Source: Blasia pusilla
Taxonomy: Eukaryota
Direction: 5' to 3'
Assembly: GCA_050084515.1 (NCBI GenBank)
Contig: CM114271.1
Coordinates: 30,876,001 to 30,940,000, forward strand
DNA length: 64,000 bases
A program made the translations under genes and the position numbers. The notes under the pieces are model-generated. The model ran no database searches, was not told the origin of the DNA, and was given only the letters and a program-made list of their open reading frames with translations. Each line of letters opens with the position of its first letter. The stretch's first letter is position 1. Positions 5,008 through 36,493 of the stretch are shown piece after piece.

Positions 5008-7268
5008 TGTCGTGCGCATACACATCGTTCCACAACATGCATTGTTGTCATCGAACACACATACAAACACGCACGATTTCATGTTAACTCAAGACGTCCA
5101 AACAACAAGTATCAAAATATCTCCAATAAAATAAAATTCAATCTTTCTCGCAACATCATAATTCTCACATGTGTGCAGTCTCACATGTCTCTCTCAATTT
5201 CAAACCAAACCCACTCTCCTAATGAGAGGCTTAGGTTATACACACAAAACAAACAAGATCATAACTCCGCCGCCTCACGCCAAAAGGTTAAACAAAGAGC
5301 GAATGAGCTCTCAAGCTCTCTCTCCTTGAGGTATACCCCTCCTCTCTCCCAAACTCTCTCCATGGTAACCTATCCTCCCAAGTCACCTCCTTGGCTCTTG
5401 ACCTGATGTAGGAGGTCAAGCGCCACTGACCAAAAATAGAAAGTCAATCATATACTCAAAATGATACTTATCTAAAATAGTATGTTTCTTAATATGGCTC
5501 CTAATGAGCCAAAATGAAGGGGAAACCTACTCTCTCAAGTTTCCTGGGGCCTCAGCAGGTAATTCTCAACCTGCTGAGCGTGTCCTCCACTACTCACGAA
5601 GGAGCTCTACTAGATCTCACCGATCTATCCTAAAACTCATGGCATCCAAACAACGAGACAAGAAGTACCAAGATATCTCCAATTGCCCTCCTAGTTCGTG
5701 GTTAGGTCCCTCTAACTCCAAATAGTCATCTATCCCTACCTACCATGACATACATCTCTCGGACGCTAAGAGCAAGAAGGCCGGGTGCTCATATGGCCCC
5801 ATCGTTAGTCGCCTTCTTGTCATCCATGTCATAGACACAAGTCGGAATGTAGAACTACCTACTCTATGTACATCTTGGACACATCCATCGTCCTTGAGGA
5901 ACCCTACTGAGAGATGGCGTCAAACATGCCATATGCCATCCTCTCGAACATCCATCACAGACTAGCATAGTGGCTGCACCACGGGCAGAACCACACAACA
6001 TACACTTCAAGCCTGCAGAAACTATTGCTAAGCTCGGATCAACTATACCGTCAATGTTCGGAAGATGATATGGCGCACAGTTACGCACATGGTCCTTCCA
6101 AACCATACCATCGTATCCCTCCAATAAGACAACACACGATGGCAAAACCTCACGCACTCTCAAGATGGTGCGCCCTACAGTCACATCCAACATCGTGGGT
6201 GTCGTCTATTGCAAGTAGACATAGTCTCCTTGATGAAACCTCCGGAGAGTAGGTCGATAATCACCTCCCGAATAGTCGCATACCTCAACGTATCCCGATG
6301 TTGTGCAATCGCCAAGTTCTCAAACGCCATGGGCATCACTCTCCGAAACAACTCAGCCCTCTGAGAACATGCTCGCATCCATACATCAGGGTCATCAAGG
6401 TTCAACACCTCACTAGTATATCGACGAATGGCCGCACGTAAATCTGGCTCTTAGCCATAATGCAACAAGTATGGTGAGAAAGACGCTAAGGATGCTTGTC
6501 TGCTGAATCTGTATCCCATCGCCAACCATGGCAACTGAAGGTCCTAATCTCCTAGGTGACCTCTGTGCAAGCCATACTTGCGTAGTCCTCTCTTTACCGT
6601 CTGCACAACCCGCTCCGCTAGTCCATCCGCCTTAGGATGATCTCGCGAAGTAATGCGGTGGTCGATTAGTGCCTGATCACATAAGGCCTGAAACTCCATG
6701 CGGAACTCTATACCCTGGTCTATCAACACCTCAGCTGATGCACCGCAATGACTTAGCACTGGATCTAGGAAGGCATATGCTACTCCCTCACTCGCTATGT
6801 CAGGCAATGCAACCAACTCTATCCACTTCGAGAAATGCTCGACCATCACCAACACATAACGACTATGGCGCTCTGTCAAAGGCAAAGGTCCTACAAAATC
6901 CAAACTCCATCTATAACCTAAATCCATGATCGAAATTGGATGCAACTATAGAGTTGGAGCATTGAACTATGCTCGGACTCGATCACACACCATGCATCTG
7001 GCAACAAACTGCTAAACGTCAATCTGCATGCCTCGCCACCAATACTGAATCTACAGCAAGCTGTATGTCCGCTTCACTCCAAAATGACCCAACTCTTCGT
7101 AGGCATGACGCACCGAACGTGCTCTCTCGAAAGGATGAGGCACTACACGCACTCTACCATCCTCCCACACTTGCAATACATGTGTGCCCTCCCAACGGAA
7201 CCGTCTGGCTCGTTGTAGGATCCGATCGCACTCTCTAGCACCCACTGTGCTCGCGAGGCTGCCAGTAC
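5008..7268 (-). mobile_element. Ty3/gypsy-type element, 3' part: integrase, PHD finger, terminal repeats (partial B1 5635-5682, A2 5127-5634, B2 5008-5126)
   Basis: Inverted copy of 12970-15326. Ends in ...CGCACGACA at 5008. Confidence 0.9.
5864..7260 (-). pseudogene. Retroviral-type integrase (HHCC + DDE) with C-terminal PHD finger, disrupted by stops and frameshifts
   Basis: ELGHFGVKRTY...CMVC; WSLDFVGPLP...VLIDQG...ADGLAERVVQTVK; PHD CMLC...LVCDGC..GWHMACL.P.L..VPQGRWMCPRC. Confidence 0.92.
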
Positions 7269-8210
7269 CACCATCCACCATCCATCATCGGCCGTTGCCG
7301 TTGCCTAGCGCTACTCAGAGCCGCATTTGGCTGTTGTCCACCCTTTGGTTGCCATTGCCGCCATTACGGAGTGGAGGATCTTCCACGACCACCATTGATT
7401 CTCTAACTTGGGTCGCCACCACGTACTTTGGTTTGGCCACCACCGTCATCGTAGATTCTCATCAACCAGTGATGGTAGGTGACCTCAGGTTATGGTATTT
7501 GAGTTTTCATTTCATGTTGCTATGTTGGGAATGGTAGCCGCTCGACGATGATCGAGTACTGTGCCGTGACGCCCGTAGCCGCAACGCGCCACTGATTGCC
7601 GCGCCGTGTCGCATGTGGCCGCACTGCACCATCTCGATCGCGAGCCGCTCCTTCACTAAGGTGAATGTGAATTTCTGATTGAGGATGGTATCCCGCTGAG
7701 TGCCGTGCCGTTTGTAGCCGTTCCGTGCCGCAACGGACCGCTGGACCTGCACTGCACATCGAGGAGGTTTGAGCAGCGTCAGTACGAGAGGAGTACAACT
7801 TGCTGATTGGAGGAGTTGTCTTCACGACCAAGTTGGGATCGAGATTTGCAGTTGTCGAGGAGCAATATCGACATTATTGTCAGGTTACCCATTCTAGTCT
7901 CTTACCCTACACGTGTGAGGGATTTTCGGATATTGGGAAGTGATTTGGGATATTGGGTTTCGTGCTGATGCTAGAAGCATCGATGATGTATGGGTTTAGG
8001 GGACATAGACCTATGTGGGATGTCCAGAGTTGAGGATGGTTTGTCGATGAGACGATAGATCGGTTGATTTGCCGCACCACGTTGCTTGTTGCCGCACAAC
8101 ACACATCTTAGTGAGAGAGTGTAGATTGAGTGCCGCAAGTTTAGTTTGAGTGATTGAGGGATTACTCACGAGATTGAGAGTGATCATGTGAGAGGGGCAC
8201 GAGGGCCATC

Positions 8211-10800
8211 ACGACGTCCTTTCGGGATTTTGAGAGGCGAGGTAGTGGACCTGAGAGTAGCTCTGGAGGGTTTACCCGGAGTGGTGCGAGGTTTCGAGGG
8301 TCTCCACATGAGAGACCACCTCGATCTCCTTTTGTGTCGTCTTCAGACAAGGGGGAGCATGTAGAGGAGTGTGTTAGTGATCCACCATACACATTGAGTG
8401 GTCCTAGCAGTTGGGTGTACGAGATGGACAACCGGGGTAGAGGACCGCGTAGGTTTTTGGGTGTTGTAGGCACCATAGAGCTACACGACTTCATTGCGGA
8501 GTTGAGGAGTTTGTGTGACTCACAACGGGCTAGGAACTCTAGAGAGTTCAACCTGTTTACAACATGGAACGGTATGTTCCAGCATTTAGAGGGGACGCCC
8601 ATGGACGATTACCATGAGTTCTCCCCCAGATATGCCTAGGAGATTGAGGCATGACGACTCTATTATGACCCACAATATGTTTCATGGACGGAGCCGTTCC
8701 TAGATGAGGAGGAGGAGTCAGGAGAGGCTACTTCCTCTTCCACTAGTGATTTTTTAGAAGGGGTCACTCGCATTGGAGCAGTTGCACCATCTAGTCGGGT
8801 TCGTCCCAAGTTCAACCCCGTGGTTGAGCTCTTTGTTGAGTTGAGGGCGAGCTACCAGGGGGTACGGATGGAGAAGTTGCGGAGCATCCACAACTTCCAG
8901 AGGCGCCCGGGTGAGAGTTTGCATGAGGCTTACACTTGCTTGCGTTGGTTGATCAACGTCACTCAGGGGATGACAGAGGCTCAGGCTATCCAGTCATGGT
9001 ACGCGATGTTGGACCGGATCCTGCGGACACGGGTGCGGGAGAGGGTGCTTATTATGAACACCTCCCCTACTTTGAGAGATGTTTTTAGGACCGTCGAGAA
9101 CATTGAGTGCAACATGGCGGAGGAGAGCGTAGCTGCCATGGGTTCTGGGCGAGAGCAATCACGATTGTCTACACCACCTGTGCAGCAACGTGGACTCCGA
9201 GATAGGTCAACTGTGGCACCACGAGCTCAAGGAGGATACCGGGAGGCCGTGCCACAAAGACCTGCACCTTCATATGGGGCTCACCAGCAACTGCCTACTA
9301 TTACTTGTTGGTCAAAGGTGGAGCCCATCATCAGCGCGATTGCACTCGTCAGGGTCATGGACGTGTGCCTCAGCATGGAGGAGGAGATGGTGCTACACCA
9401 AGAGGTTATCAGTGTGACTATTGTCAGAGGTATGGTCATACATGCGCCAGATGTTTCAGTTTACATCATGAGTTACGTCCGGACCGAGGGTCAGAGAGGG
9501 CACCAGAGTGAGTAGCCGGTCTGGGTGGGGCTAGAGGTCGTGCACCAGGTGGTCCAGTTGGGGGACGAGGAGCTGGAGTTTCCCGACATGGTGGTGGAGC
9601 TGCCCGTGGAGGAGGTAGAGTCCCTCCACCTCGACGCGTCGAGGGAGATGCCGAGCGTGAGGCTGGGATGGCTGCTCAGATACAATAGCTACAAGAGCAG
9701 ATTGCCGCCATGGCATTGAGGTTACCCGATGCCAGATTCGTGGCATCGACATCATATGGAGCAGCCAGAGACATGTAGGATCCTGGTTGGATGTGCAGGG
9801 TTGCCCAAATGGAGGCCGCCGTAGTTGTGACGCGTGGAGCAGCTGCAGAGTGGGATCCACAACGAGGGGAAGCGAGGAAATAGACTAGGCTTCCTCAGTC
9901 TTTCACGTTGTCTGAGGCGATGAGGACCCCATCAATGGATCCTGATCAGAGTTCCTGGAGAGTTGGTGATGTTGTTGGTGTGCAAGCACGGAGGGCGATG
10001 GGAGAAGCAAGTGCGAAGACTCCTATTGTTGATGCTCATGAGGGGCATGTGTCGAGCACGTTGTTGAGGGCGGCGACCGTCGTGTACCGCGCTCCTTTAT
10101 TTTCTGCTTTCAATGTTATGACGTTGGGAGGTATGCCCCCCGAGGTTTTTCTGCTGGCCGCAATGCTATGTGAGCATGGAGTTGGAGTTCCTACATCACG
10201 TTCAGAGGTGATTGCAGAGGAGGTGATGGACCTGCCCTTGGAGCGGATGCTCGGGCCATCCACGTCAGATTCATGGCAGGCTGCACCTGCTAGGATGGCG
10301 GAGATGCCCGCTAGACCCGCGATAGAGCGTGCTATGGTTTCTCCTGGTGTTGTGTTGATGGATAAACAGGGAGAGGTCTTCTAGTTGGTCAGGCCTGGAG
10401 GTAGAGCTTTTAGTCCGCAACGCATCTTATTGGATTCAGGAGCGCAACCCCTGATGTTGGGGAAAGCGTCATTCAGAGGATTGGGCTTGACGAGAGCCAA
10501 TGTGGAGCGTTGTCCATTCCGGATACAGACATCCTTGCGTGGAGCAAGTACCACTCAGTATATCATCCGACAGGAGGTCGTGGTGAGGATTCGCCCAAGA
10601 CATCCTACAGATGAGTCCGTGGTGCGAGCCAAGGCAATAGTGAGTGATGCAGAGTCCTACAACGTCTTGGTTGGTGGAGCAGTGTTATACCCGATGGGAT
10701 TTTCCCTAGATTACTGGGTGGAGTCTGCGTCGTATAGACCAGGATGGCAGTTAGGTGATGGGCGTCTTAGCTCATTATCTATTTGATTCACAGGTGCAGT
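8211..10800 (+). pseudogene. Gag (two CX2CX4HX4C zinc knuckles) and aspartic protease, degenerate
   Basis: Gag-like FQRRPGESLHEAY. Knuckles CWS(C)GGAHHQRDC and CDYCQRYGHTCARC. Protease active site ILLDSGAQ. Confidence 0.85.
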
Positions 10801-11145
10801 GATCGAGCGACGGCGAGGACATATGGCGACCTTAGCAGCATTTAGCAGTGCCATCACTCGGCTAGTGATTTGATTGAGGGACATGTCCATGCAGAGGAAA
10901 CTCCCGTTCTTGACATTTCTATGGAGAGGAGTGTCATAGTAGCTGCATCAGTTTGTGGAGGAGAGGTGCCGCTTTGGGGCTCGACTAAGGAGCTTCGACG
11001 CTTAGCCACTGAGCATGTGCAGACCGCGTGGAGCAAGATATTTGCACTAGAGTGTGACGGGTCAGAGGAACCCTAGGTAGGCAAGAGTGTTGCTATGACC
11101 CCTTTGGACACCACCCCAATTGTGTGGTGCATCCCAGAGAGGGGT

Positions 11146-11648
11146 TTTCGGGTGTTGGATCTCTTTGGAGGGATCAGCACTGGATTAGCTGTTGTTTTGC
11201 ACGGTGGAGTGCGCGCGCAGCAGTACCTATATGTGGAGATTGATGATGTTGCGAGGCGCGCTTCACTTCACCATGTGGCGCTTTTACGCCTCCATTTTCC
11301 TGACTTGTTGTGTGCGTCCGCCATTCAAGGTTACCAGAGTTTCCTACCGAGGGACATTTCATTGTTGGGGGCGTAGGACTTGGAGCGGGTAGGGACCATA
11401 GACTTGGTCATTGCTGGTTGGCCGTGTCACGGCCAATCAAGTGTTGGACGAGGTAGCGGGTTAGTTGACACTCGGTCCAGGTTGTTTTGGGAGATGATAC
11501 GGATCTTGCAACATTTACAGGAGCATCAGTCTCGTTCTCCAACATACATTTTGGAGAATGTGCCAATTTTGGGCGATTCAAGGTCCCGCGTGGTGACGAG
11601 TGCACATTAGGTGGGCGCATGGATCGGCCCGGAAGTGTTGTTAAATGC
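11146..11648 (+). pseudogene. C5 cytosine DNA methyltransferase domain, N-terminal half (motifs I-VI), in the polyprotein frame
   Basis: Motif I RVLDLFGGI, motif II YVEID, motif IV DLVIAGWPCHG (catalytic PC at 11422-11427), motif VI YILENV. One internal TAG; truncated by a deletion at about 11648. Confidence 0.93.
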
Positions 11649-12770
11649 ATGCAAAGGTCTTCAGTTCATCGGATTTTCGAGCCAGGTACCATCAGCTACC
11701 TATCAGATTGGAGGACAAGCAAAAGACGACATTTTGGGGCATCGATCCTCACGAGAAGGATTGTTTGTACCAGTGGCGGTTCTTACCATTTGGGTTTAAG
11801 AATGCCCTCAGAGGGTCATGGATAGGATCTTGGCAGGTCTGGATTTTGCTAAGTGTTATATTGATGACATCGTAGTCTTTAGCGCCACGGTTGAAGAGCA
11901 TGAGCGACATCTAGAGGAGGTGTTTTGATGATTGCAGTTACATGGGCTGAAGCTACATCTAGGCACGTGCAAGTTCTTCTACGACAAGATTGAGTACTTG
12001 GGTCATACGATATACCCTGGGGGCCTTTGTGTGCAATAGACAAAGGTAGAGGCTATTTTATGCATTCCACGTCCTACAGATGTGAGTTGAGTTCGTACAT
12101 TCATGGGATTGGCAAACTTCTATCGACGGTACGTCAAGGGTTTCAGTTCGATTGCGAAGCCACTAACCTTGATGACCAAGGTGGATCAGGAGTGGCACTG
12201 GGGGGATGAGCAAGAGAGAGCATTTCACATGCTCAAGGATCATACTCCTGCAATAAAAGAGCCCACCTCGCAAGCTTCCCTGTAAGCTTGTTGGACTCCA
12301 TCAACCACTTAAGTGGCTAATGATCAGTAATGATGGTAAAGGGATTGCCGAATAGATAGCATCTGAAATGTGCGACAACCCACATTACAGCCAAGCACTC
12401 ACCCTCATACGAGCTATACTTCGCCTCTGCAGCGTTGTTTGAGCGACTAGCATAAGTCACCATGAACTCTCTACCATCATCGTCATGCTGGGTGAGCACG
12501 GCTCCAAGCCCCAACATGCTCCAATCGGTATGCAACAGGAAAGGATGACCCTTGATCGGTCTCCTCAATATGGGCGCAGACGTCAATCTTTCCTTGACGT
12601 CATCTTGGTTTACCATCCCAGGTCTATGCACCACATGGAAGTCACTTGAGCATCTGAAATGCTCAAGGATCCATGTGGTGCATAGACCTGGGATGGTAAA
12701 CCAAGATGCAGATGGTTTGAGTCGTAACCCATGCCCGAGTCAGCGAGATGCGACTGGAGCTCGTTAGCAT
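11647..12770 (+). pseudogene. Reverse transcriptase and RNase H, degenerate; RNase H core (about 12240-12596) inverted
   Basis: HAKVFS.DFRARYHQ, KTTFWG, LPFGFKNA, CYIDDIVV, FMGLANFYRRYVKGFSSIAKPLT. On the minus strand LHTDWS..GLGAVL..YASRS..YSSYEGECLAV..TDH. Confidence 0.9.
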
Positions 12771-12969
12771 GGTGAGAGTGATGAGAGTGATAAGGAGTTG
12801 GTGCCAGGATGGTATGTGTCAGCCTATTTGGGCTTGTTGGCTATGGAGAGCCAGATTGCGGAGACTTCGATGGCGAGGTCTGATGGAGAGTCCTTAGATC
12901 CAGAGGCCGGTGAGGAGACGACAGGTGGCCGAGATATTCCCGACGATGGAGTGGTCTAGGAGTATCTAC

Positions 12970-14369
12970 GTACTGGCAGCGTCGCGAGCACAGTGGGTTC
13001 TAGAGAGCGGGATTGGATCCTACAATGAGCCAGACAGTTTTGGTGGGAGGGCACACATGTGTTGCAAAAGTGGGAGGATGGTAGAGTGCATGTAGTGCCT
13101 CATCCTTCGCAGAGAGCACGCTTGGTGCGTCATGCCCACGAGGAGTTGGGTCATTTTGGAGTGAAGTGGACGTACAGCTTGCTCCAGATTCGGTATTGGT
13201 GATGAGGCATGTAGACTGGAGTTCATCAGTTTGTTGCCAGATGCATGGTGTGTGATTGAGTCCAAGCATCGTTCAATGCTCCAACTCCACAGTTGCATCC
13301 ACTTCCGATCATGGGTTTAGGTTAAAGATGGAGTTTGGATTTTGGAAGACCTTTGCCTTTGACGGAGCGCCATAGTCGTTATGTTTTGGTGATGGTCGAG
13401 CACTTCTCCAAGTGGATAGAGTTGGTTGCATTGCCTGACAAAGCGAGTGAGGGAGTTGCGTATGCCTTCCTAGATCGAGTGTTGAGTCATTACGGTGCAC
13501 CAGCTGAGGTGTTGACAGACCAGGGTACAGAGTTCCGTAGGGAGTTTTAGGCCTTGTGTGATCAAGCACTGATCGACCACCGCACTACTTCGCGAGATCA
13601 TCCTGAGGCGGATGGACCAGCGGAGCGGGTTGTGCAGATGGTGAAGAGAGGACTATGCAAGTATGGCTTGCAGAGAGGTCACCTAGGAGATTGGGGCCTT
13701 CAGTTGACGTGGTTGGCGATGGGATACAAATTCAGCAGGCAAGCATCCTTAGCGTCTTTCTCATCCTACTTGTTGCTTTATGGTCGAGAGCCACAGCAGC
13801 AGCCATTCATCAATATACTGGTGGGGTGTTGAACCTTGATGACCGTGATGTATGGATGCGAGCATGTTCTCAGAGGGCTGAGTTGTTTCGGAGAGTGATG
13901 CCCATAGCGTTTGAGAACTTGGCAATTGCGCAATATCGAATACGTTGAGGTATGCGACCATTCGGGAGGTGTTTATCGACCTACTATCCGGAGGTTTCAT
14001 CAAGGAGACTATGTTAACTTGCAACAGATGGCATCCACGACGTTGGATGTGACTGCAGGGCGCACCATCTTGAGAGTGCGTGAGGTTTTGCCATCCGGTG
14101 TTCTCATATTGGAAGAACGCGATGGTATGGTTTGGAAGGACCATGTGCGTAACTGTGCGCCATGTCATCTTCCAAACATTGACGGTACAGTTGATCCGAG
14201 CTTAGCAATAGTTCTTGCAGGCTTGCGATGTATGTTGTGTGGTTCCGCCCGTGGTGCAGCCACTATGCTAGTTTGTGATGGGTGTTTGAGAGGATGGCAT
14301 ATGGCATGTTTGACGCCACCTCTCACTAGGGTTCCTCAGGGAAGATGGATGTGTCCCAGATATACATAG
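12970..14369 (+). pseudogene. Integrase with C-terminal PHD finger, degenerate
   Basis: HEELGHFGVK, WSLDFGRPLP, VLTDQGTEF, ADGPAERVVQMVK, then CMLCGSARGAATMLVCDGCLRGWHMACLTPPLTRVPQGRWMCPRY. Confidence 0.92.
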
Positions 14370-14550
14370 AGTAGGTAGTTCTACATTTCGACTTATATCT
14401 GTGACATGGATGACAAGAAGGCGACTAACGATTGTGCCACATGAGCACCCGGCCTTCTTGCTCTTAGCGTCCGAAAGATGTATGTCATGGTAGGTAGGGA
14501 TAGATGGTTATCTCGAGTTAGAGGGACCTAACTACCAACTAGGGGGGCGA

Positions 14551-15326
14551 TTGGAGATATTTTGGTACTTCTTGTCTCGTTGTTTGGATGCCATGAGTTA
14601 GCATGGGATCGTGCGTGTTTGTGTGTGTGTGTTTGGTGACAGCGATGTATGTTGTGTAACGATGTGTATACGCACGACAGTTATCATATCATTTAGGATA
14701 GATCGGTGAGATCTAGTAGAGCGCCTTCGTGAGTAGCGGAGGACACACTCAATAGGTCGAGAATGACCTACTGAGGCCCCAGGAAACCTAAGAGAGCAAG
14801 TTTCCCCTTCATTTTGGCTCATTTGGAGCCATATTGAGGAACTTACTATTTTAGGTGAGTACCATTTTGAGTATATGATCTACTTTCTATTTTTGGTAAG
14901 TGGCGCTTGACCTCCTATATCAGGTCAAGAGCCAAGGAGATGACTTGGGAGCATAGGTTACCATGGAGAGAGCTTGGGAGAGGGGAGGATTATACCTCAA
15001 GGAGAGAGAGGTTGAGAGTTCATTCGCTCTTTGTTGAACCTCTTGGCGTGAGGCAGCGGAGCTATGGTCTTGCTTACCTTGTGTGTGTAACCCAAGCATC
15101 TCATTAGGAGAGTGGGTTTGGTTTGACATTGAGAGACACATGTGAGAGCGCACACATGTGAGAACTATAGTGTTGTGAGAGAGATTTTATTTTATTTTAA
15201 TTGGAGATATTTTGGTACTTCTTGTCTCGTTGCTTGGATGTGATGAGTTAGCATGGGATCATGCGTGTTGTATGTGTGTTCGGTGACAGCGATATATGTT
15301 GTGTAGGGATGTGTATGCGTACGACA
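14551..15326 (+). repeat. 3' terminal repeat block: B1 (14551-14679), GT spacer, A2 (14682-15199), B2 (15201-15326)
   Basis: B1 and B2 are direct copies (TTGGAGATATTTTGGTAC...CGACA). A2 matches the reverse complement of 21523-22042 and 5127-5634. A purine-rich AGGGGGGCGA precedes B1. Confidence 0.88.
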
Positions 15327-15680
15327 CATGCCCAATTGCATCAAAAATCTCCTTAGGGGTGGGCATGGCATACCTATTGGCCTTCGTCTGCTGATTGATA
15401 GGTCGGTAATCTCCACACATTTGCTTATCCGTATAATTGCCATGCACATCCTTCTTGGCGGGCATGATAGTGGCACATGCATACTCTCCATGCGACATCT
15501 CCCCTAGTCCTGCTACAACCAAGTCCTGGCTCCTACTCTGCATCAAAGCCCTCTCCATGTCACTAAACCGGTAGGGTCGTCGGAAGATTGGCGCGTCACT
15601 CGACAACTCAATGTGGATCCCTAGACCCTTCAGCATACCCAAATCATGCATACTAAATGCAAAATATAACTCCTAAGGAA
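15327..15680 (-). pseudogene. Reverse transcriptase N-terminus
   Basis: IHIELSSDAPIFRRPYRFS...YACATIMPAKKD...MCGDYRPINQQTKANRYAMPTPKEIFDAIGH. Confidence 0.9.
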
Positions 15681-16059
15681 CTAGTGTATCCGGCGCCGCT
15701 CTCCTCCTGTCAACTTAGGGCCCTTATCTGGCTCCCAAGTCTCCATCTAAGGTAGGACTCTCCGACGTGGGTGTCGGTGGTTGCTATGGTGCAACCCCGT
15801 CTCGGACAATGGAACTCTCATCTCCACATGCAGCACCCGGAACTAGACTCGATGTTGTGGCTATCATCTCCTAGCGTACCTACAAAACATCCCAAGAAGT
15901 CCAAGGGTGTCTCTCCCGATCATCCCTGGTGTGTTGATCTCCTCGGGTCTCGCCCCAGCCGCTGCCTCAACCACCTCGGTAGGCATGGGCTCACCAACGC
16001 AACATCTGTCATCTGTTGCGTCCTCAAACGACGTTGCTCTACTACTCCTAAGCTGAAAA

Positions 16060-16996
16060 TCCATGTCAAGCAGTTCAGGTCCATTGCCTAACCCAAGACA
16101 TGACGACGTGATGCCTCTGATAGTGATGGTACTGTCGTCACTCTTGTGCGGAATCCCATCGCTCGCTCTCGCTCATCGGCGTTGGGCTCCACCAACCTCT
16201 GTACTTGGTCATCCCAAACCAAGCCAGGTCCGGACATCTTGAATGCATAGGAAGCGGGAAAAATCACCAATATGGGAAAGGCTACCCGTGGCCTCCCAAT
16301 CCTGTTGACCACAGTCAACGGCGGTCGATCATCTAGCCTCACTGCCTGTGATCGACGGCCTGGATCCAATATAGAATCCACCAACAAATCGGAGGGGCGC
16401 TTCACTCTTGCATATGTCCTCCGCAATACCTCATGTGGTACCAAGTTGGTCCACCAAAGACGCGGGTGATGTGCTCGTGAACCCACACTCGCCGCATCTA
16501 ACAACACTGTTGGGCCGATCCATGCGCGCACTTGATGTGCACTCATCACCACACGGGACCTCGAATCGCCCAAAATTGGCACATTCTCCAAAATGTATGC
16601 TGGAGAACGAGGCTGATGCTCCTGTAAATGTTGCAAGATCCGCATCATCTCCCAAAGCAACTTGGACCGAGTGTCAAAAACCCGCTACCTCGTCCAACAC
16701 CCGATTGGCCCTGATACGGCCAACCAGCAATGACCAAGTCTATGGTCCCTACCCGCTCCAAGTCCTGCGTCCCCAACAATGAAATATCCCTCGGTAGGGA
16801 ACTCTGGTAACCCTGAATGGCGGATGCACACAACAAGTCGGGAAAACGGAGGCGTAACAGCGCCACATGGTGAAGTGAAGCGCGCCTCGCAACATCATCA
16901 ATCTCCACATATAGGTACTGCAACACGCGCACTGCAGCATGCAAAACAACAGCTAACCCAATGCTGATCCCTCCAAAGAGATCCAACACCCGAATA
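16060..16996 (-). pseudogene. Full-length DNMT3-like C5 cytosine methyltransferase domain (motifs I-X); one frameshift, one stop, catalytic Cys changed to Tyr
   Basis: RVLDLFGGI, VEID, DLVIAGWPYQG, YILENV, DAASVGSRAHHPRLWWTNL (motif VIII), ERERAMGF (IX), RRHVLG*AMD (X). Confidence 0.93.
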
Positions 16997-17339
16997 CCCT
17001 TCTCTGGGATGCACCACACAATCGGGGTGGTGTCCAAAGGGGTCATAGCAGCACTCCTGCCTACTTGGGGTTCTTGTGACCCGTCACACTCTAGTACAAA
17101 TGTCTCGATCCACGCAATCTCCACATGCTCAGTGGCTAAGCGTCGAAGCTCCTCAGTTGGGCCCCAAAGCGGCACCTCTCCTCCACGAACTAATGCGGCT
17201 ACCATGACACTCCTCTCCATAGAAATTTCAAGAACGGGAATATCCTCTGCATGGACATGTCCCTCAATCAAATCAGTAGGCCAAGTGATGGCACTGCTAA
17301 ATGCTGCTAAGGTCGCCATCTCTCTTGGCCGTCGCTCAA

Positions 17340-19919
17340 TCATTGCACCTGTGAATCGAACGAGTAATGAGCTAAGACGCCCATCACTAACTGCCATCCT
17401 GGTCTATACGACGCTGACTCCTCCCAGTAATCCAGGTAAAACCCCATCGGGAATAACATTGCTCCACCAACCAAGACGTTGTAGGACTTTGCATCAGTCA
17501 CTATTGCCTCGGCTGGCACCACGGACTCATCTGGAGGATGTCCAGAGCGAATCCTCACCACAACCTCCTCTCGGGTGATATACTGTGTGGTACTTTCTCC
17601 ACGTAAGGATATCTGTATCCGGAATGAACAACGCTCCACATCGGCTCTCGTCAAGCCCAATCCTCTAAATGACGCTTTCCCCAACAGTAGGGGTTGCGCT
17701 CATGAATCCAACAAGACGTGCTGCGGACTAAAAGCTCTACCTCTGGGACTCACCAACTGGAAGACCTCTCCCTGGTTATCCACCAACACAACACGCGGAG
17801 AAACCATGGCACGCTCTATCATGGGTCTAGCAGGCATCTCTGCCATCCTAGCAGCCGCAACCTGCCATGAATCTGACGTGGACGGCCCTAGCATCTCCTC
17901 CAAGGGCAGGTACATCACCTCCTCTGCAATCACCTCTGAACGTGATGTAGGAACTCCAACTCCACGCTCACAAAGCGTAGCGGCCAGCCGAAACACCTCG
18001 GCGGGCGTACCTCCCAACGTCATAACATCGGAATCAAAAAATAAAGGAGCGCAATACACAACGATGGCCGTCCCCAACAATGTGCTCGACACATGCCCCT
18101 TCTGAGCATCAACAATCGGAGTCGTCGCACTTGCTTATCCCATCGCCCTCCGTGCCTGCACACCAACAACATCACCAACTCACTAGGAACTCTGATCAGG
18201 ACTCATCGATGGAGTCCTCATCGCCTCGGACAACGTGAAAGATTGAGGAAGCCTAGTGTGTTTCCTGGCTTCCCCTCGGTGTGGATCCAACTCTATGGCT
18301 ACTCCACGCGTCACAACTGCGGCGGCCTCCATCTAGGCAACCCCGCACATCCAACCAAGATCCTCCATATCTCTATATGATGTCGATGCCATGGATGTGG
18401 CATCGGGTAACCTCAATGCCATAGCAGCAATCTACTCTTGTAGCTGTTGTATCTGAGCAGCCATCCCTGCCTGACGCCTGGCGTCTCCCTCGACGCGTCT
18501 AGGTGGTGGGACTCTACCTCCTCCACGGGTAGCTCCACCAGCCTGTCGGAAAACTCCAGCTCCTCGTTCCCCAACGGGACCACATAGTGCACGATCTCTA
18601 ACCCACCCGGACCGACTACTCGCTCTGGTGCCCTCTCTGGCCCTCGGTCCGGACGTAACTGAGGAAGTAAACTGAAACACATGGCTCGTGTATGACCATA
18701 CCTCTGACAATAGTCACACTGATAACCTCCTGGTGCAGCGCCATCTCCTCCTCCATGGTGAGGCACACGTCCATGACCCTAACGAGTGCAATCACGCTCA
18801 TGATGGGCTCCACCACATGACCAACAAGTAATCGTAGGCGACTGCTGCTGATCCGCATATGAAGGCGCAGGTCTCTGTGGCATGGCCTCCCGATATCCTG
18901 CCTAAGCTCGTGGTGCCATAGTCGACCTATCTCGAAGTCCACGTTGCTGCACAGGTGGTGCAGACAATCGTTACTGCTCTCGCCCAGAACCCATGGTGAC
19001 TACGCTCTCCTCCGCCATGTTGCGCTCAATATTCTCAGCAATTCTAAAAACATCTCTCAACGTAGGGGAGGTGTTCATAAGAAGCACCCCTCCCGCACCC
19101 GTGTCCGCAAGGTCTGATCCAGCATCGCGTACCATGATTGGATAGCCTGAGCCTCTGTCACCCCTTGAGTGACGTTGATCAACCAGCGCAAGCAAGTGTA
19201 AGCCTCACGCAAACTCTCACCCGAGTGCCTCTGAAAGTTGTGGATGCTCGCAACTTCTCCGTCCGTACCCTCTGGTAGCTCGCCCTCAAATCAGCGAAGA
19301 ACTCAACCACGGGGTTGAACCTGGGACGAACCCGACTAGATGGTACAACTACTCCAGTGCGAGTGACCCCTCCCAAAACATCACTAGTGGAAGAGGAAGA
19401 AGCCTCTCCTGACTCCTCCTCCTCATCTGGGAATGGCTCCGTCCATGATACATACTGTGGGTCATAATAGAGTCGCCATGCCTCAATCTCCTGGGCATAT
19501 CTGTGGGAGAACTCATGGTAATCGTCCATGGGCGTCCACTTTAAATGCTGGAACATACCGTTCCATGTTGTAAACAGGTTGAACTCTCTAGAGTTCCTAG
19601 CCCGTTATGAGTCACACCAACTTCTAAACTCCGCAATGCAGTCGTGTAGTTGTATGGTGCCTACATCACCCGAAAACTTACGCGGTCCTCTACCCCGGTC
19701 GTCCATCTTGTACGCCCAACTGGTAGGACCACTCAATATGTATGGTGGATCACTAACACACTCCTCTACATACTCCCCCTCGTCTGAAGATGACATAGAA
19801 GGAGATTGAGGTTGTCTCTCACATGGAGACCCTCGAAACCTCGCACCACTTTGGGTAAACCCTCCAGAGTTATTCTTAGGTCCACTACCTCGCCTCTCAA
19901 AATCCTGAAAGGACGCCGT
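17340..19919 (-). pseudogene. Gag and aspartic protease, degenerate
   Basis: Homologous to 8211-10800. Knuckles CWSCGGAHHERDC and CDYCQRYGHTRAMC; protease VLLDS. Confidence 0.88.
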
Positions 19920-21522
19920 GATGGCCCTCGTGCCCCTCTCACATAATCACTCTCAATCTCGTGAGTAATCCCTCAATCACTCAAACAAAACATGCGGCAC
20001 TCAATCTACACTCTCTCACTAAGATGTGTGTTGTGCGGCAACAAGCAACGTGGTGCGGCAAATCAACCGATCTATCGTCTCATCGACAAACCATCCTCAA
20101 CTCTGGACATCCCACACAGGTCTATGTCCCCTAAACCCATACATCATCGATGCTCCTAGCATCAGCATAAAACCCAATATCCCAAATAACTTCCCAATAT
20201 CCAAAAATCCCTCATACGTGCAGGGTAAGAGACCAGAATGGGTAACATGACAATAATGTCGATGTCGCTCCTCGGCAAGTGCAGATCTCGACCCCAACTC
20301 GGTCGTGAAGACAACTGCTCCAATCAGCAAGTCGTACTCCCCTCGTATTGATGTTGCTCAAACCTCCTCGATGTGCGGTGTAGGTCCAGCAATCCGATGG
20401 GGCACTGGCGGCACGGAACAGCACTCGGCGGCATACCCTCCTCAATCAGAAATTCACACACTCTGCACCTTAGTGAAGGAGCGGCTCGGCGATCGAGACG
20501 GTGCGGTGTGGCCACAAGCGGCACGGCGCGGAAATCGGCGATGCGTCGCGGCTACGGGCATCTCGGCACGGTACTCGATCATCGTCGAGCGGCTACCAAT
20601 CCCAACATAGCAACATGAAATGAAAACTCAAACATCATAACCCGAGGTCACCTGCCATCATTGGTTGATGACAAAACTCTAATGATTGTGGTGGCCAAAC
20701 CAAAGTACGAGGTGGCGGCACAAGTAAGAGAATCAAAGGTGGTCGTGGAAGACCCTCCACTCCGTAATGGCGGCAATGGCAACCAAAGGGTGGACAATGG
20801 CCGAACGCGGCTCTGAGCAGCACTAGGCGACGGCAGCGGCCGACGGTGGACCGTGGACCGTGGACCGTTGAAGGTGATGGGTGACCGTTGATGGTGATGG
20901 TTGACCTTTGACGGTGATGGTTGACCATCGACGGTGACTATGACGGCGACGGCCGCCGCCGGTCCGGCGGCTGATTTAGGGTTTGAACAATTTAACCCTA
21001 AAAATCTCCTAGCAATGGCAGTTTTGCAAGATTGACCATAAATTTTTGCTCACAACTCCAAATTGTGTATCATTTGATGCACACCATGCACAACTTCACG
21101 ATCTACGACAACGTCAAAAACTATTTGGAATCGAACATTCTAGTAAAAATTGACAAGGACTGTTGTAAAGCCCAATGTCTCTTTCTCCTACACAAAATTT
21201 GTCAGCGCTTCCGCCCTGATTTCTCCCAACGAAAATGTAAAACATGTGAGAACACAAATCAGCAAGCTACATGGTGCTCCTAGGAGCACCAGCATGGGGC
21301 AACCTGCCCCCATACTCAATCCCTATCAAAAATTGGGCAGCGCTTCCGCGCGCCACTCTTCTACACGAAAAATCGGCAAAGGAAACATCACAAGCAAGCG
21401 ACTCTTGCTCCGGTGAGCACTCCCATGAACCGCTGAACGGGGGATACGATCCCCAACCTGCAAAACCAGCGAGTGACCACCGAGCTCCCCCATGAAGCTC
21501 TCTCACTCACTCATTCTCTCTT

Positions 21523-22042
21523 TGTAAAATAAGATCCAATCTCTCTCACAACACCATAGTTCTCACATGTATGCACTCTCACATGTCTCTCTCAATGTCA
21601 AACCAAACCCACTCTCCTAATGAGAGGCTTGGGTTACACACACAAGGCAAACAAGACCATAGCTCCGCCGCCTCATGCCAAGAGGTTCAACAAAGAGAGA
21701 ATGAGCTCTCGAGCTCTCTCTCCTTGAGGTATACCCCTCCCCTCTCCCAAGCTCTCTCCATGGTAACCTATGCTCCCAAGTCACCTCCTTGGCTCTGGAC
21801 CTGATGTAGGAGGTATAGGGCCACTTATGAAAAATAGAAAGTCGATCATATACTCAAAATGGTACTTACCTAAAATAGTAAGTTCTTCAATATGGCTCCA
21901 AATGAGCCGAAAAGAAGGGGAAACCTGCTCTCGTAGGTTTCCCAAGGCCTCAACAGATCATCCTCGACCTACTGAGCCTGTCCTCCACTAATCACAAAGG
22001 CGCTCTACAAGATCTCACCGATCTATCCTAAAAGACGTGACA
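21523..22042 (-). repeat. 5' terminal repeat A1 (520 bp, TG...CA), not followed by repeat B
   Basis: Aligns with 5127-5634 and, inverted, with 14682-15199. The sequence internal to it is unrelated to B. Confidence 0.88.
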
Positions 22043-24879
22043 AAGATTTGTGATGAACACTACTAATCCGATTTTGATGTGGAGTAACACGGTGATTGGA
22101 GTAATCCGATTCCGATGTGGAGTAACACGGTGATAGGAAAAATGAGAACATTAACTAACGCTAACATGGAATCTATTCAACCATGGTCATCCGACCGTTC
22201 AAAACTTCATATCCAAAGGTCAAAACTTCTGCACGGTAGCTTTCGTTCTGTGCTCGGAACCGCGTATTGTAGGGGGCGTAAATATTTTCCACGTGTCAAG
22301 TAGACCTGTCTTTGCAAATCCAAGAGGCACTCTCCATATATAGATATCAACATAATGTGCACATTTGAAGACCTATCCTGTTAGGAGTTGTCTCTAAGCA
22401 TTTCATGTTCTTGTTTTTGGGCATCGCTTTTAACTTTTAGTGGATAGGGGGAATGTCCCCTTCTTCTTTTTAAAGGCCACATGTGGCCTTTGGATACTTG
22501 ACTCTTTGATCCCCTTTTTTGTTTTTCTGATGGGTTTTCATCGTGCATAATTAGCCATAATTAGCCCTTCTTGTGTATAATAGGAGTGCCTACTAATATG
22601 AGATATTATCAATAGCAACCTTTCTTGCTGTGGAATTGGCGAACCTAGTCAACACAGTGCTGAGGGAGGGAAAATCAAGTCCGGAAGGAAGGCTGCTAGA
22701 TATTTTATTTGCTTATAAACAGGAGGTTCCCTTTCACGAACTAAATAACAATGAGTATACTCCTGACGTGTTTATTGAATGTTCCTTATATTCAATAGTT
22801 CACCATAATATTAAGTGCTCCTTATATTATGGTGAAATATTGAACCATGCACAAGACTACAAATGAAAAAAAAAAAGTAATATTATACACTTTCCTCCTC
22901 CTTTCTCCTTACCCATCCCCTCTCGCACATGTTCTCTCCCCTTAACCCAACTCTCTTCTTTCTTGACTTAGAGGAGTCCTCAAAAGATAGGAGTCAACAA
23001 TAGGAAGAGAGATTTTGTGAATCCCTCCTCTCTTAATAATACAAATAAATGTGTAAAATTTGAAGAGGAAAAGAAGTCACCATTTAATTGTAAAGGAGAT
23101 GGGAAGTGGTCACATATAACTATTTGGTACTACCCTGAGAAATGAAGGAGTGGGGTATTTAATATGGAATTGGTGGAAAAGCGGAATATTTTGTAGGAAT
23201 AGAATCCAAAAATACTTGTGCCAAGCATGAGTATGAAAGTAGTCAAAATAATCTATGTCGATTCCGGTTAGCACTCAATAGGGCAAGTAATTTCTGAAGC
23301 AGATCTATAGGGAACTATCATATCTTAAACAACCTCATTGGAACTAATGATGCTTCATTAGCCTCCTTACCTCTATGAGCCTGTTTAGATGTAAGTGAAA
23401 CTAGGTATACGGGTTGTAAGTTCCAATAAACTAACAGTGGGTAGAAAATATGATGTTGACTATAGTTGGATTGAAAGGCATAGTTGAGGAACAAAAAAAC
23501 TAGCGGTTGCAGAGGTGTTACATACAACAAGCAAGTGGCTAAAGCATGAACACGGGATATGTCATTAAACCAAAATTACTTTTGTTGTGCCATCTTGGTG
23601 GAATCATTGTGGACAAGAGCTCTACTTTTAGTTTGAAGCTATGTTGCCAAGGGTTGGAAGGATCCTTGCATCCAAGTTCGCCAAGTTGGAGATGGAACAA
23701 GAAAAAAAATCTGGAATTCCCTCTCACATGGATGATTAGGCAAGTACTTTCCAACAAAGCATGTTGATACATTTATCATGCTTGCACATTCAAAGGAAGT
23801 AGGCACATTGGAATTTGGAAAAAATAGTAGAGCCTTGAGGGTACATGAGAGGAAGAAATGAACACATATGTGGCATGTGCAGATCACTTATAGAGTGGCT
23901 GTTTTTTCTTGTCTAATCAAAGTTTTGTGTTCAATTCCATGGCTATGAACCACCATCATGAAAACATAGCTTAAACTCGTGATGCCTTTAAGATGGGGGA
24001 AGCCTTCACATACATTGCTTATCCATCCACATATAATCTTTCCAACTTCTTTTCTCTTATATGTACATTCTGAAAACCTCACTAAAAGTCTCTTATGTTG
24101 TCTCTTACCTTCAACTTTCCTGTATTTCAGTATGTTCACACAAACACAAAATATCTACGTGTATGCTCTCATGACAGTTTCTTTTTCACTCATCGCACAC
24201 TTTGCATTTAACATATGGATCTCCTACAAATTGCTCAAATTACTTATGACAAATGCAAACGAGATTATCATACAAGAGAAATAGAAAAGACACTCTATCA
24301 AAATTTTTGGTTTAGGGTCACATTTCAAATTCCTTCTCAACTTCAAACCTTCTCCACCTCTATCCCTAACACCAATTGAATCTACCTACTTCAAACTTTC
24401 TAATCTTCATTCCATATGTACTTAAAGACCATATAATTTCATCGACTACATTCATATCCTCTATAATTTCACTTCTTATTCCCTATCAACTTTCCCAAAT
24501 TTCAGTTCTCAACTAAGTAATCTTCTTTTCATCGAACACATTTTACACTACACTATTATATGATACGTCACCAAATTTTTCATTCCTACTTCCATAAGTA
24601 TATAACGTTTACTTGCACTTCTCTAACAAATACACTGTCTACCATTCTTTTTTGCCACTACCCATTCTATTTCCAATTATTTTCTTCCCTACTTTTCCAC
24701 CTTCTATTTTCTTCCACCAATTCTACATGTTTTACTTTCATAACTTTTTACCAAACTATTGCAAATTTAACCACCGTCACTTACTCGCCGCATACTTGTT
24801 CAATATAAACATGTCCCTGTCCCTAAATTCAACAAGTTCTAATTTATTTCTATATGTGATTTGTAGTTTACTAATCAAT

Positions 24880-26259
24880 AGTGATGTAGCGCACTGAATT
24901 CATATGCAATGCTCATTGTATGGAAAGACGCACTGATGACTCATCATCGTGCATTTGAGGCAATGAGTTGCACTTTACAAGATATTATGGAAGTGGTCGT
25001 GAGTAATCTTAGGCAAATAGTATTTGATGGAAAATCGATAATATTTGGTGGTAATTTTTTTTGAGTCTTACTTTTTGTTTGCTATAAGGACAGTCTAAAA
25101 ACTATCCAAACCACTATAAAGAGACCGTCTTTATGGTCTTATATAAAGGTGATGAAATTCATGACAAACATGAGAGTTCAAAGGTTGGAAGGTCATACAC
25201 ATGTTCCCCATCAAGCTTTTGGTAATTGGTTATTAGAAATGGAAGAGGATCATGTACATTGCCATCCTCATTTGGGAGATGACATTATACAATTTCTGTG
25301 TGATATGATTACCAAGAGTAATAAGATAGGTGATCTTATTGATACTATCTATGGAATTGATCTTGGCCAATTTTATGGCATCAACTTTTTTAGAGATACC
25401 AAAATTTTGACACCAAGAAATAGAAATATTGACAAAATAATCAAAGAAGCCAGGTCCCCTTTTCATGGAGCTAATAATTAATCATCTTTCTTTTTTTTCT
25501 TTTACCAATTTCCTTTATGATTATGGAAAAATAGCAAGCCTCCTTGCAAATTTATAATATATTATGTAAATGAGCATGTTTACCTTAATGTCAATTGTGT
25601 TTCAAATGATAAGATGAATCATATTATCCAATCAAATTATTAAACACATGCTTGTAATCGACTTCTAGAGTACCTCCATATCGTTTGTGTTTGAATATTG
25701 GAGTAGTAATCATATCCCTCTTCCGAAACGTGAAGGGATCGAAGGACAACCAAACGATACTTAATTAACGATTTGTAGTTTCATCCAGAATGTGATAAAT
25801 GTCGAAATCATCACATGGAAAAATATTGGAGACAATTTTTTTATTTCACTTATCCCATTCATTATATGTGATGCCGATCTACGTGTTTGACTTTCATCTA
25901 CCTTTTGATTTATGAAGATTGCAATTCCCTATTTGTCTAGCTATAGTTATTAAATAATGTTTAAATAAAACTTCACAAAATGTTGAAATTTACTTACCTA
26001 CTCTTTATTTACTCATGTTCAATTATACGTAGCATTATCTAGACTAGGTGAGAAGAGTTCAATCCATACTACTATTGAAAACAATGTACAATCAAATGCA
26101 AATAGAGAAGGTCATTACACGCAAAATATAGTGTAAGAAAGTAATTAGATGAAATAAATATTCACATTCTATTCTTCTTCGGCATGCCCATCTATATGTT
26201 TCATTATCACAACACTAATTTCTTGCAAGCATCCATGCATGGGACAAGCACTTTACTAG
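24880..26259 (+). mobile_element. Canonical Helitron 3' remnant: decayed PIF1-type helicase and 3' terminus
   Basis: HHRAFEAMSCTLQDIM, IIFGGNF, SLWSYIKVMKFMTNMRV, FGNWLL, ILTPRN, RLQFPI, FTHVQLYVALSR. Small hairpin TCCATGCATGGGA followed by CTAG|T at 26256-26260. Confidence 0.82.
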
Positions 26260-35307: not shown

Positions 35308-36493
35308 CTCATCAACTCAAATCCACTCCGACGTGTAGAAACTTGGGGTTATAATTACAACGTTCTCGAAATTTCAGTTGCTCTGATTCAACCCTGCCAA
35401 ATCTCCGGTTGCTTGCGGGTGATTCCAAGCAAGTAAACTCCGAATCCCTAATTATAACTGGAATTGATCCACAGCTCAACTTAGAGGCTGACCAGTGGCA
35501 ACCTTTTATTGTCTATGTTCCTCCGGCTCGTGAGTACCTCAAACTTGGCCGCGCGCACAACAAATCACATTCGCTCTCTGAAATTCTCTATATTCCACGA
35601 CCACATTGGCTTGCTGCTAGCTGATCACAGAACAGATCTGTGCTTCTGCGCATACCGAGACTCCCTGCCTCTCCAACATACAATGAAAGCGCTGGAACTT
35701 TCAGCACTCGGCTTCTTTATTTTCAACCTAGAAACACCGGAAAGCACAAAAATTCAGACAACCAAGATCCTCTCCGATGGCCAGATTTCATGGTAGGTGT
35801 TCTACTAGACACACAATTACACCAGAATTTTGCAGGAACTGCCAGTGCACACTGCTGCATGCGACTCATCCGACCTGCATAACAGTGGCAGTCCACAGAT
35901 CTCTACGACATTCTCATACAAGGATCGAGTACGACCAGTTCCTCGCCCCGGATATCCGCCTAACCCGAAGCCAACACGCGACGCTGCCTGTCGCAATCAC
36001 AGTGCGAGTCGCACGAGCAAAGCGGAGCAGCAGCAAACGCAAAGATTGGAACCCGACCCCATCGGTCAAAGCTCCATGACAGTTCTTCGCTCCTGATTGC
36101 GGAAGCAAACGATTTCGTGGGGTCCACCACGACAATCCATGAATCGAGCGTGAATCCGAAAGGGTCCGAAAGTAGACGGACGTAGTCACTCCCCGCGCTT
36201 TCAAGTTCCGCTTCCAATCCTCGAGATTCGAGAACGTCGTGCAGAGAACCGAACTCCCACGGGTGCGAGTAAAAGCGATACTAACCTAGGGGACTTGTAT
36301 GAGGATTAGGGTTTAGCTTTATGTCCAAGGGCCTGTTTTATTTCCAGGGGTCATGGACTCATGGTTGCTTGACCTGTTTGTTTTATCCTTCATCCGGTAG
36401 GCGGATTGATTGGAAAAGGATCAGGGCCAGGACGGTGTTTGGTCAGCTGGAGAATTCTGCGGACTGCTTTGGGAAGTAAGGATTTGGGCACAG

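Follow-up and report, generated by a model that had tools for sequence, protein, structure and literature searches.

Two copies of a Ty3/Gypsy-type retroelement that carry a C5 cytosine DNA methyltransferase (DNMT) domain inside gag-pol are present in a 64,000 nt stretch of DNA from Blasia pusilla (assembly GCA_050084515.1, contig CM114271.1, forward strand, 30,876,001 to 30,940,000). This whole stretch is referred to as the window, and positions are counted from its first letter. The domain lies between the protease (PR) and the reverse transcriptase (RT), and its presence there is confirmed for both copies, B on the plus strand and D on the minus strand. With a probability of about 0.8, the elements are dead copies of a high-copy Gypsy-type family with the order gag(CCHC)-protease-DNMT-RT-RNase H-DDE integrase-PHD, which belongs to the streptophyte Gypsy-DNMT3 lineage (KnitGypsy-Dnmt3 type). 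This membership is proposed because a tree split is shared with Klebsormidium nitens, the domain order is the same and the terminal repeats are arranged as A...B-A-B. The original prediction, made from the DNA letters alone, had placed a C5 methyltransferase in gag-pol of a plus and a minus copy, and its coordinates were right within about 50 nt. The features of the two copies are listed below (tblastn queries are relatives, labelled P with a number; ORF, open reading frame; UTR, untranslated region).

7274-15326, plus strand: copy B, whole extent
7274-10324, plus strand: copy B, part of the 5' UTR, then gag with CCHC knuckle (ORFs; colinear with residues 4-752 of the Marchantia proteins P0159/P0165)
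Near 9440-9490, plus strand: copy B, CCHC knuckle CDYCQRYGHTC
10325-10858, plus strand: copy B, aspartic protease region (tblastn of P0043 residues 482-593 and P0202 residues 644-783)
11143-11648, plus strand: copy B, N-terminal half of the DNMT (motifs I, II, IV, VI)
11651-14369, plus strand: copy B, RT-to-PHD part (tblastn of relatives)
11651-12285, plus strand: copy B, RT
About 12239-12601, reads on the minus strand: copy B, inverted RNase H piece (RT_RNaseH_2, E 1.7e-28 on the minus strand)
13263-13832, plus strand: copy B, integrase (rve, E 2.4e-14)
14229-14360, plus strand: copy B, PHD finger (PHD, E 9.5e-11)
14540-15326, plus strand: copy B, 3' terminal repeats (repeat alignments)
22043 down to about 15328, minus strand: copy D, whole extent
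15328-15979, minus strand: copy D, RT N-terminus and DNMT-RT linker (P0167 residues 723-831 and P0162 residues 1248-1333 match 15663-15337)
15980-16998, minus strand: copy D, complete DNMT domain with three lesions
16999-20857, minus strand: copy D, protease, gag and leader (tblastn; protease about 17394-17816, gag about 18413-19715)
20858-21524, minus strand: copy D, 5' region absent from B
21525-22043, minus strand: copy D, 5' repeat A1, starting TGTCACG

The C5 methyltransferase motifs I, IV (Pro-Cys), VI (ENV), VIII, IX and X occur in canonical order across copies B and D. In copy B, the frame 11077-11610, with its internal TAG (11374-11376) read as X, contains LDLFGGISTGL, YVEIDD, AGWPCHGQS and YILENV. 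This N-terminal half matches PF00145 with E 2.3e-11 (44.2 bits, Pfam cut-off 22), a match that had been named beforehand as a check. Against PDB sequences the same half reaches 3.6e-9 for DNMT3A, 2e-3 for DRM2 and 8e-4 for the best bacterial enzyme. The C-terminal half and the N-terminus of RT are lost after 11648; RT picks up at 11651, and ATGCA microhomology is seen at the deletion junction. Copy D holds its N-half in the minus-strand ORF 16645-17403 (LDLFGGISIGL, YVEIDD, AGWPYQGQS) and its C-half in the minus-strand ORF 16088-16684 (YILENV, AHHPRLWWTN, ERERAMGF, RRHVLG). Its three lesions are a change of the catalytic Cys of motif IV to Tyr, the lack of 1 nt, compared with B, after 16679, and a stop codon, TAG, at 16088-16090, between RRHVLG and AMDLNCLTW (motif X). 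Both enzymes are dead, that of B by truncation and that of D by the Cys to Tyr change. All motifs that had been read from the two copies (I, II, IV, intact in the plus copy, VI, VIII, IX and X) were recovered, and the description of all window copies as pseudogenes stands, given the Cys to Tyr change, the gap, the TAGs and the truncation.

The position between protease and RT is given by colinear tblastn alignments of Marchantia proteins on B and D and by relatives with Pfam protease matches. The stretches of P0043 and P0202 that align with the protease region of B both bear Pfam aspartic protease matches in their own proteins; the protease ORF of B itself had no Pfam match. For copy D, no Pfam family was found for the two DNMT ORFs, the protease ORF, the gag ORFs or the RT N-terminus ORF. 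A search of 1.84 billion representatives with the 198-aa ORF of the D C-half gave 729 protein clusters at E<=1e-3, including 387 at <=1e-10. Because 729 clusters match, the best at 8.6e-76, the resemblance is not by chance. The best 150 matches all have E<=8e-21, and every one that could be typed by domain order is borne by a retroelement.

The kind of methyltransferase was assessed with a profile from the alignment of 18 family members, searched against all PDB sequences. The profile matched DNMT3A (E 1.7e-25), DNMT3B (2.7e-22), DNMT3C (3.3e-22), tobacco DRM (1.9e-14), Arabidopsis DRM2 (2e-11), M.HhaI (4e-9) and DNMT2 (1.8e-8); no DNMT1 or CMT chain was matched at E<=0.01. An AlphaFold model was made for P0156, an uninterrupted relative that is 67% identical to the C-half of the window's domain (34-row alignment, mean pLDDT 91). 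All Foldseek matches listed for this model are DNMT3A, DNMT3B or DNMT3C, with target TM values of 0.41-0.84, and of 0.79-0.84 for chains of the catalytic domain only. The model superposes on DNA-bound DNMT3A/B. The motif order I-IV-VI-VIII-IX-X is non-permuted, unlike that of DRM, in the window and in 133/190 relatives with contiguous N and C halves. No Pfam match to PWWP or ADD was found in any of 19 relatives scanned; a PHD finger after the integrase is present instead. Profile and model together suggest a domain of DNMT3 type, predicted to be closer to DNMT3A/B than to DRM, DNMT1/CMT, DNMT2 or bacterial enzymes. The originally proposed DNMT3-like, non-permuted domain between protease and RT is borne out by the PDB profile, by Foldseek and by the colinear tblastn alignments, and the PHD finger expected after the integrase is found at 14229-14360.

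Relatives were found as 15 clusters in Marchantia polymorpha, 5 in Calypogeia fissa, 1 in Riccia sorocarpa, 2 in Sphagnum and 7 in Closterium, as GAQ93235.1 in K. nitens, and in the chlorophytes Scenedesmus, Haematococcus, Monoraphidium and Cymbomonas. Proteins of M. polymorpha annotated as hypothetical, with 1150-1330 residues (P0159, P0165, P0162 and others), are colinear with gag-protease-DNMT of B and D, and P0162 and P0167 continue from DNMT into RT and RNase H. The metagenome protein P0202 is a single 2358-aa frame with the order PR-DNMT-RT-RH-INT-PHD (RH, RNase H; INT, integrase); P0051 has a CCHC knuckle in addition. K. nitens GAQ93235.1 contains CCHC, aspartic protease and DNMT in that order. 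The best identity of the window's C-half, 67-68%, is with Calypogeia and unnamed records, and its identity with the K. nitens protein is 37-38%; the nearest relatives of the window family are probably those of liverworts. Klebsormidium was absent among the 39, 120 and 120 matches listed in word-indexed searches, and was found via the cluster names of tree neighbours. The Ty3/Gypsy Pol order PR-RT-RNase H-DDE integrase is present, with the DNMT inserted between PR and RT. In DIRS elements a tyrosine recombinase is expected where Gypsy elements have a DDE integrase. The window family has a rve integrase core, and it does not fall under DIRS/PAT, defined by a tyrosine recombinase and no DDE integrase.

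Domain order was typed by phmmer, and 384 of 385 proteins had at least one recognised domain. The order RT-RNaseH-DNMT-integrase(-PHD) was found in 201 of the 384, DNMT before RT in 15, and 168 were too short. A FastTree of 181 full-length domains and the window C-half is split 31|151 with support 0.998. The smaller side holds the window, Marchantia, Calypogeia, K. nitens GAQ93235.1 and 6/6 'DNMT before RT' proteins in the tree. All 133 'RT-RH-DNMT-INT' proteins are on the larger side, and none is on the window's side. The Closterium and Sphagnum domains failed the full-length filter, and their membership comes from shared domain order alone. On sequence grounds, the Gypsy-DNMT3 lineage appears to occur in Klebsormidium nitens, Closterium, liverworts and Sphagnum. 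The implied novelty of this kind of element has to be withdrawn, as the window's DNMT falls on the K. nitens gag-PR-DNMT side of the split and the repeats resemble those of KnitGypsy-Dnmt3.

Two identical long terminal repeats (LTRs) were not found; the window composite and L026, an independent metagenome relative, both carry a single A at the 5' end and B-A-B at the 3' end. The window's 5' end (copy D) is a 519-nt repeat A, from 22043 to 21525. The 3' end (copy B) consists of the purine run AGGGGGG, B1 (14551-14679), A2 (14680-15199) and B2 (15200-15326, ending CGACA), and B1 and B2 align over 129 nt. In fragment C, which is the 3' piece of one more copy, the order is likewise B-A-B, with the first B shortened to 49 nt (about 5636-5684), A at 5127-5635 and B at about 5009-5126. 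In L026 (1676-10805), A is at 1676-1975 and B-A-B at 10238-10805, with gag to PHD between; the ends are TG...CA, AAGG stands on both flanks (a 4-nt match, chance 1/256), and the AGGGGGG run precedes B1 as it does in the window. No target duplication is readable in the window. At 14679, 1565 reads stop matching and continue in unlike sequence of low agreement (0.34), as expected of the element's true end; beyond about 22284 the read depth drops from 566 to <6. A read joint from 14550 to 21525 is more simply a normal A-to-B junction placed on the best-matching A and B copies. In this family a DDE integrase occurs together with split direct repeats, in line with the legend for KnitGypsy-Dnmt3 in the 2018 paper (PMC5890265).

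A 508-nt repeat was considered as an ordinary LTR and rejected, as both independent 3' ends are B-A-B and the 5' end is A alone, as in L026.

A separate origin has to be considered, in which a Gypsy element of bryophytes acquired its DNMT3 from the host, apart from the Klebsormidium element, and the likeness is convergent. Recurrent capture of DNMT by retroelements is described in PMC5890265, the text of which places this acquisition 'in the K. nitens lineage', and the tree contains no cellular DNMT3 outgroup. Convergence is nevertheless very unlikely. The same insertion point, PR|DNMT|RT, is found in K. nitens, Closterium, Marchantia, Sphagnum and the window; the 0.998 split unites the DNMTs of K. 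nitens, Marchantia, Calypogeia and the window (no Closterium or Sphagnum domain is in the tree); and the A...B-A-B repeats are common to the window and L026, as reported in the 2018 legend for KnitGypsy-Dnmt3. Descent within one streptophyte Gypsy-DNMT3 lineage is the preferred reading.

The catalytic Cys of motif IV and the Glu of ENV in motif VI are conserved in 181/181 domains, and the Asn of ENV in 178/181. The arginines of motif VIII are found in 178/181 and 180/181, the Gly of motif IX in 179/181 and the Gly of motif X in 175/178; residues of motifs I, VIII and IX are mostly kept in >=174/181. The Pro before the catalytic Cys is present in only 91/181, and the commonest variants are GWECQ, with Glu replacing Pro, which is unusual for C5 methyltransferases. 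At the DNA level, 22 liverwort-type metagenome copies, several of which are probably the same sequence assembled twice, were compared with the open copy L004. The ratio of nonsynonymous to synonymous substitution rates (dN/dS) is 0.85-0.96 for the 3 nearest pairs (dS 0.05-0.06), 0.40-0.72 for 18 middle pairs (dS 0.105-0.269) and 0.18 for the deepest pair (L013, dS 1.8). This trend probably reflects lineages that were constrained while active and copies that decayed neutrally once inserted. For copy D against L004, pN is 0.217 and pS 0.768 over 319 codons, with 47 skipped; because pS is saturated, no corrected ratio is given. Ka/Ks between B and D is 0.43-0.53 for gag and protease. Purifying selection on the catalytic motifs, which had been put forward as a check, is seen in catalytic residues invariant in 181 relatives and in pN far below pS in deep pairs.

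Copy number was estimated from approximately 1 in 100 of one whole-genome read run of the host, mapped on 11000-24000 at >=88% likeness. The summed read depth is 0-0.4 in the flank (22718-24000), 445-865 over the DNMT of copy D, 1100-1480 over gag, about 1800 over the integrase and 2250-2580 over repeat A. The family comprises roughly a thousand copy-equivalents or more in the host, and the DNMT part is family-wide. The possibility that the domain is confined to this locus, raised with the original prediction, is set aside by this depth relative to the flank and by the one open frame of P0202. Of the 98,648 mapped reads, only 269 match at >=99% likeness and 93,609 at <95%; the likeness being mostly <95%, the window copies are therefore not young family members. 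Coverage in three RNA runs is strand-specific, and the dominant strand flips with the orientation of the copy; within copy B the flip is seen even for the inverted RNase H piece. The RNA runs reach a depth of 3-22 over the DNMT of copy D, compared with 75-166 for the integrase region (13170-14471). Read by the usual library convention, transcription is in the sense direction, and the family is transcribed.

The locus is a heavily rearranged element nest, in which methyltransferase stretches could also be taken as remnants of a host DNMT3 gene broken by transposon insertions. This reading has next to no probability and is refuted by the identical protease and RT junctions in both copies, by a read depth of the domain that is hundreds-fold over the flank, and by relatives that carry all domains in single open frames. 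The methyltransferase is part of the retroelement.

Several observations weigh against the assignment to a Gypsy-DNMT3 family with a maintained enzyme. Taken alone, both DNMT ORFs of copy D gave no Pfam family at E<=0.01, and the D C-half reaches only E 0.15 against DNMT3A among PDB sequences. The tree was made without cellular DNMT3, DRM, CMT and MET1, and 'DNMT3-type' describes a PDB profile and fold ranking, not a phylogeny. That GAQ93235.1 is a copy of the published KnitGypsy-Dnmt3 is inferred from its domains. The 181 domains were picked as full-length matches in predicted ORFs, with a bias to intact motifs. For the DNMT N-half, Ka/Ks between B and D is 0.60 over 165 codons, which is weak. 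A stop-to-stop frame spans the whole DNMT match in 4 of the 28 metagenome relatives examined (out of 80) and 86-95% of it in 2 more; most relatives are likewise dead, and every window copy is broken. The DNMT depth is only about 0.4-0.7 of that of the adjoining gag and RT; some copies may be without the domain, or their domain may have diverged past the 88% limit. The RNA reads say nothing on an open DNMT frame in any transcript. Half of the family has Glu for Pro before the catalytic Cys. The KnitGypsy-Dnmt3 domain was expressed in yeast and no methylation was detected, a result that its authors deemed inconclusive (PMC5890265).

A mechanism of self-methylation can be suggested tentatively, with somewhat less than even odds. 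The DNMT would be translated within Pol, would travel with RT, and would place de novo methylation on the cDNA just made or on the element just inserted. The PHD finger of the integrase, likened to readers of the unmodified H3 tail, may steer insertion off active (H3K4-methylated) promoters. A new copy would then arrive resembling silent host chromatin, with less harm to the host, and the family could persist. The nearest solved chains of the PHD finger are PHF12, CHD4, KDM5A/B, KAT6A, DPF3, PHF21A, AIRE and UHRF1. Most of these proteins bind the unmodified H3 tail. De novo methylation of cDNA or insertion would be the simplest role, and it is one put forward for DIRS-borne Dnmt3 in the text of PMC5890265.

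The domain could also be kept without methylating the element's own DNA, as a cDNA/RNA-binding or structural module, for RNA methylation, or for action in trans on DNA of the host or of rival transposons. The absence of detected methylation by the Klebsormidium domain in yeast would fit such a use, as would the retention of the motif IV Pro in only 91/181 domains with GWECQ as the commonest variant; RNA methylation and host-side effects are raised in the discussion of PMC5890265. A mere scaffold would lose the catalytic Cys and the ENV Glu, which are present in all 181 domains, and most motif I, VIII and IX residues, kept in >=174, and the predicted fold of P0156 superposes on DNA-bound DNMT3A/B. 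On these grounds such a use is unlikely, and self-methylation is preferred.

The region 5009-22043 is a nest of related retroelement pieces, as shown by self-comparison of the window and by protein-to-DNA alignments. In addition to copies B and D, the following related pieces were found in the window.

5009-7268, minus strand: fragment C, 3' part of a third copy with integrase core, PHD region and terminal repeats
6544-6945, minus strand: fragment C, integrase core (rve, E 4.9e-11)
28781-31170, plus strand: copy E, diverged gag-protease fragment of a related family (tblastn of P0159, P0165, P0162 and P0202)

Fragment C is 90% identical to 12970-14599 and 87% identical to 14692-15326 of copy B, both inverted, in self-BLAST. 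Copy E is 55-58% identical to the N-terminus of Marchantia gag and has no DNMT downstream; no nucleotide match between copy E and copies B or D was found in the self-comparison of the window. Copies B and D share 90.6% identity in an alignment of 4355 nt; 288 transitions and 123 transversions were counted, and 95 differences of the CpG-to-TpG/CpA kind, which is the usual decay of methylated plant repeats.

The right end of the internal deletion in copy B (11651) is the exact RT base at which copy D is cut (about 15328): IFDAIGH / AKVF, the RT N-terminus of D ending with ...IFDAIGH. A total of 265 DNA reads join 15327/15332 to 11651/11652 across opposite strands, and these parts are contiguous in other copies. 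The shared breakpoint suggests an inversion or template-switch event and not two independent breaks. Reads from other copies also join 12232-12240 to 12589-12675 on opposite strands; the RNase H piece is uninverted there. The shared breakpoint, the inverted RNase H piece and the layout of B, C and D point to a complex rearrangement. Most of the layout would be accounted for if D and fragment C were one element split by copy B. No matching target duplication was found in the flanks, and the single-element reading is only a possibility.

Outside the nest, a long open frame at 38727-40181 (minus strand, 484 codons from stop to stop) with an F-box (PF00646, E 1e-10) looks like an intact host gene. 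The ORF 36410-36967 (plus strand) has a glutaredoxin-like start (PF05768, E 2.4e-7, first 24 profile positions only) and probably belongs to a host gene as an exon. At 58802-61088, self-comparison shows a tandem array whose units, each of roughly 350 nt, are 78-87% identical to one another. An AT-rich stretch at 25065-25481 (plus strand) with a weak PIF1-helicase-like match (E 4.9e-4, below the Pfam cut-off) may be the remnant of a Helitron.

Plant transposons are held in check mainly by cytosine methylation, and a transposon with its own de novo methyltransferase is a paradox. Dnmt3-bearing retroelements were previously known from one charophyte alga and from dinoflagellates. The lineage is now placed in land plants. 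These include the genetic model Marchantia polymorpha, in which 15 clusters have no annotation other than hypothetical protein, and the benefit that a transposon draws from DNA methylation can thus be tested in a land plant that is tractable. The 2018 view that the capture was restricted to the Klebsormidium lineage is revised accordingly. The window's own copies are dead and without functional interest in themselves. Apparently new are the Gypsy-DNMT3 lineage in land plants (bryophytes), its abundance and transcription in this host, and a green-algal sister group with the order RT-RNaseH-DNMT-integrase-PHD. In the full-text literature, with subscription journals and supplements outside, no paper was found on the bryophyte copies, on the PHD-bearing RT-RH-DNMT-INT green-algal group or on the high copy number. 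The original statement that no characterised land-plant example is known is upheld to this extent; uncharacterised copies do exist in Marchantia, Calypogeia, Riccia and Sphagnum, under the label hypothetical protein. For streptophytes, the full-text literature yielded only the 2018 paper and later works that cite it, in passages of PMC12344493 and of the preprint 10.64898/2026.05.21.726589.

A wider picture is speculative and on balance doubtful. One ancient Gypsy-type lineage with a DNMT3 writer and a PHD reader would run through the green plants from a time before land plants arose, its writer having changed place once within Pol. With about a thousand or more copies, transcribed, in at least one large-genome bryophyte, its transposon-encoded DNMT3 would be a standing and hitherto ignored contributor to bryophyte methylomes. 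The pairing of a DDE integrase with DIRS-style split repeats would, in addition, imply a replication scheme not yet described.

Among known systems, KnitGypsy-Dnmt3 is described in the main text of PMC5890265 as a non-rearranged Dnmt3 in Pol of a Gypsy element with DIRS-type repeat structure and Ka/Ks <0.2, with few copies in K. nitens, and is interpreted there as an acquisition in the K. nitens lineage. The window family shares with it the non-permuted DNMT3-type domain in Gypsy Pol, the DIRS-like repeats and the purifying selection. It differs in its host, apparently a large-genome bryophyte and not a charophyte alga, in a very high copy number as opposed to few copies, and in its integrase-PHD finger, a feature that the 2018 main text does not mention. 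SymbioDIRS-Dnmt3 of Symbiodinium, for which de novo CG methylation was shown in yeast and which was reported as an independent capture (PMC5890265), is likewise a retroelement-borne DNMT3-type domain, on a DIRS backbone and in a dinoflagellate host. Chromoviruses and retroelements with PHD fingers or chromodomains resemble the window family in having a chromatin reader at the integrase C-terminus, presumably for target choice, and Chlamydomonas elements with PHD fingers on the integrase are mentioned in passages of PMC8557442 and PMC6673714; the window family adds a DNA methylation writer. The catalytic domains of animal DNMT3A, 3B and 3C are the best profile and fold matches and have the same motif order I-X. 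They are accompanied by PWWP/ADD, whereas the window family's domain is embedded in a polyprotein, with about 20-24% identity in structural alignment. The RT-RNaseH-DNMT-integrase-PHD polyproteins of green algae and metagenomes (Scenedesmus sp. PABB004 'pol', Haematococcus, Monoraphidium) share a homologous DNMT (33-45% identical), Gypsy-type RT, RNase H and integrase, and a PHD finger after the integrase. They have the DNMT between RNase H and integrase and lie on the other side of the 0.998 split; the green-algal members are probably the sister group of the window's lineage.

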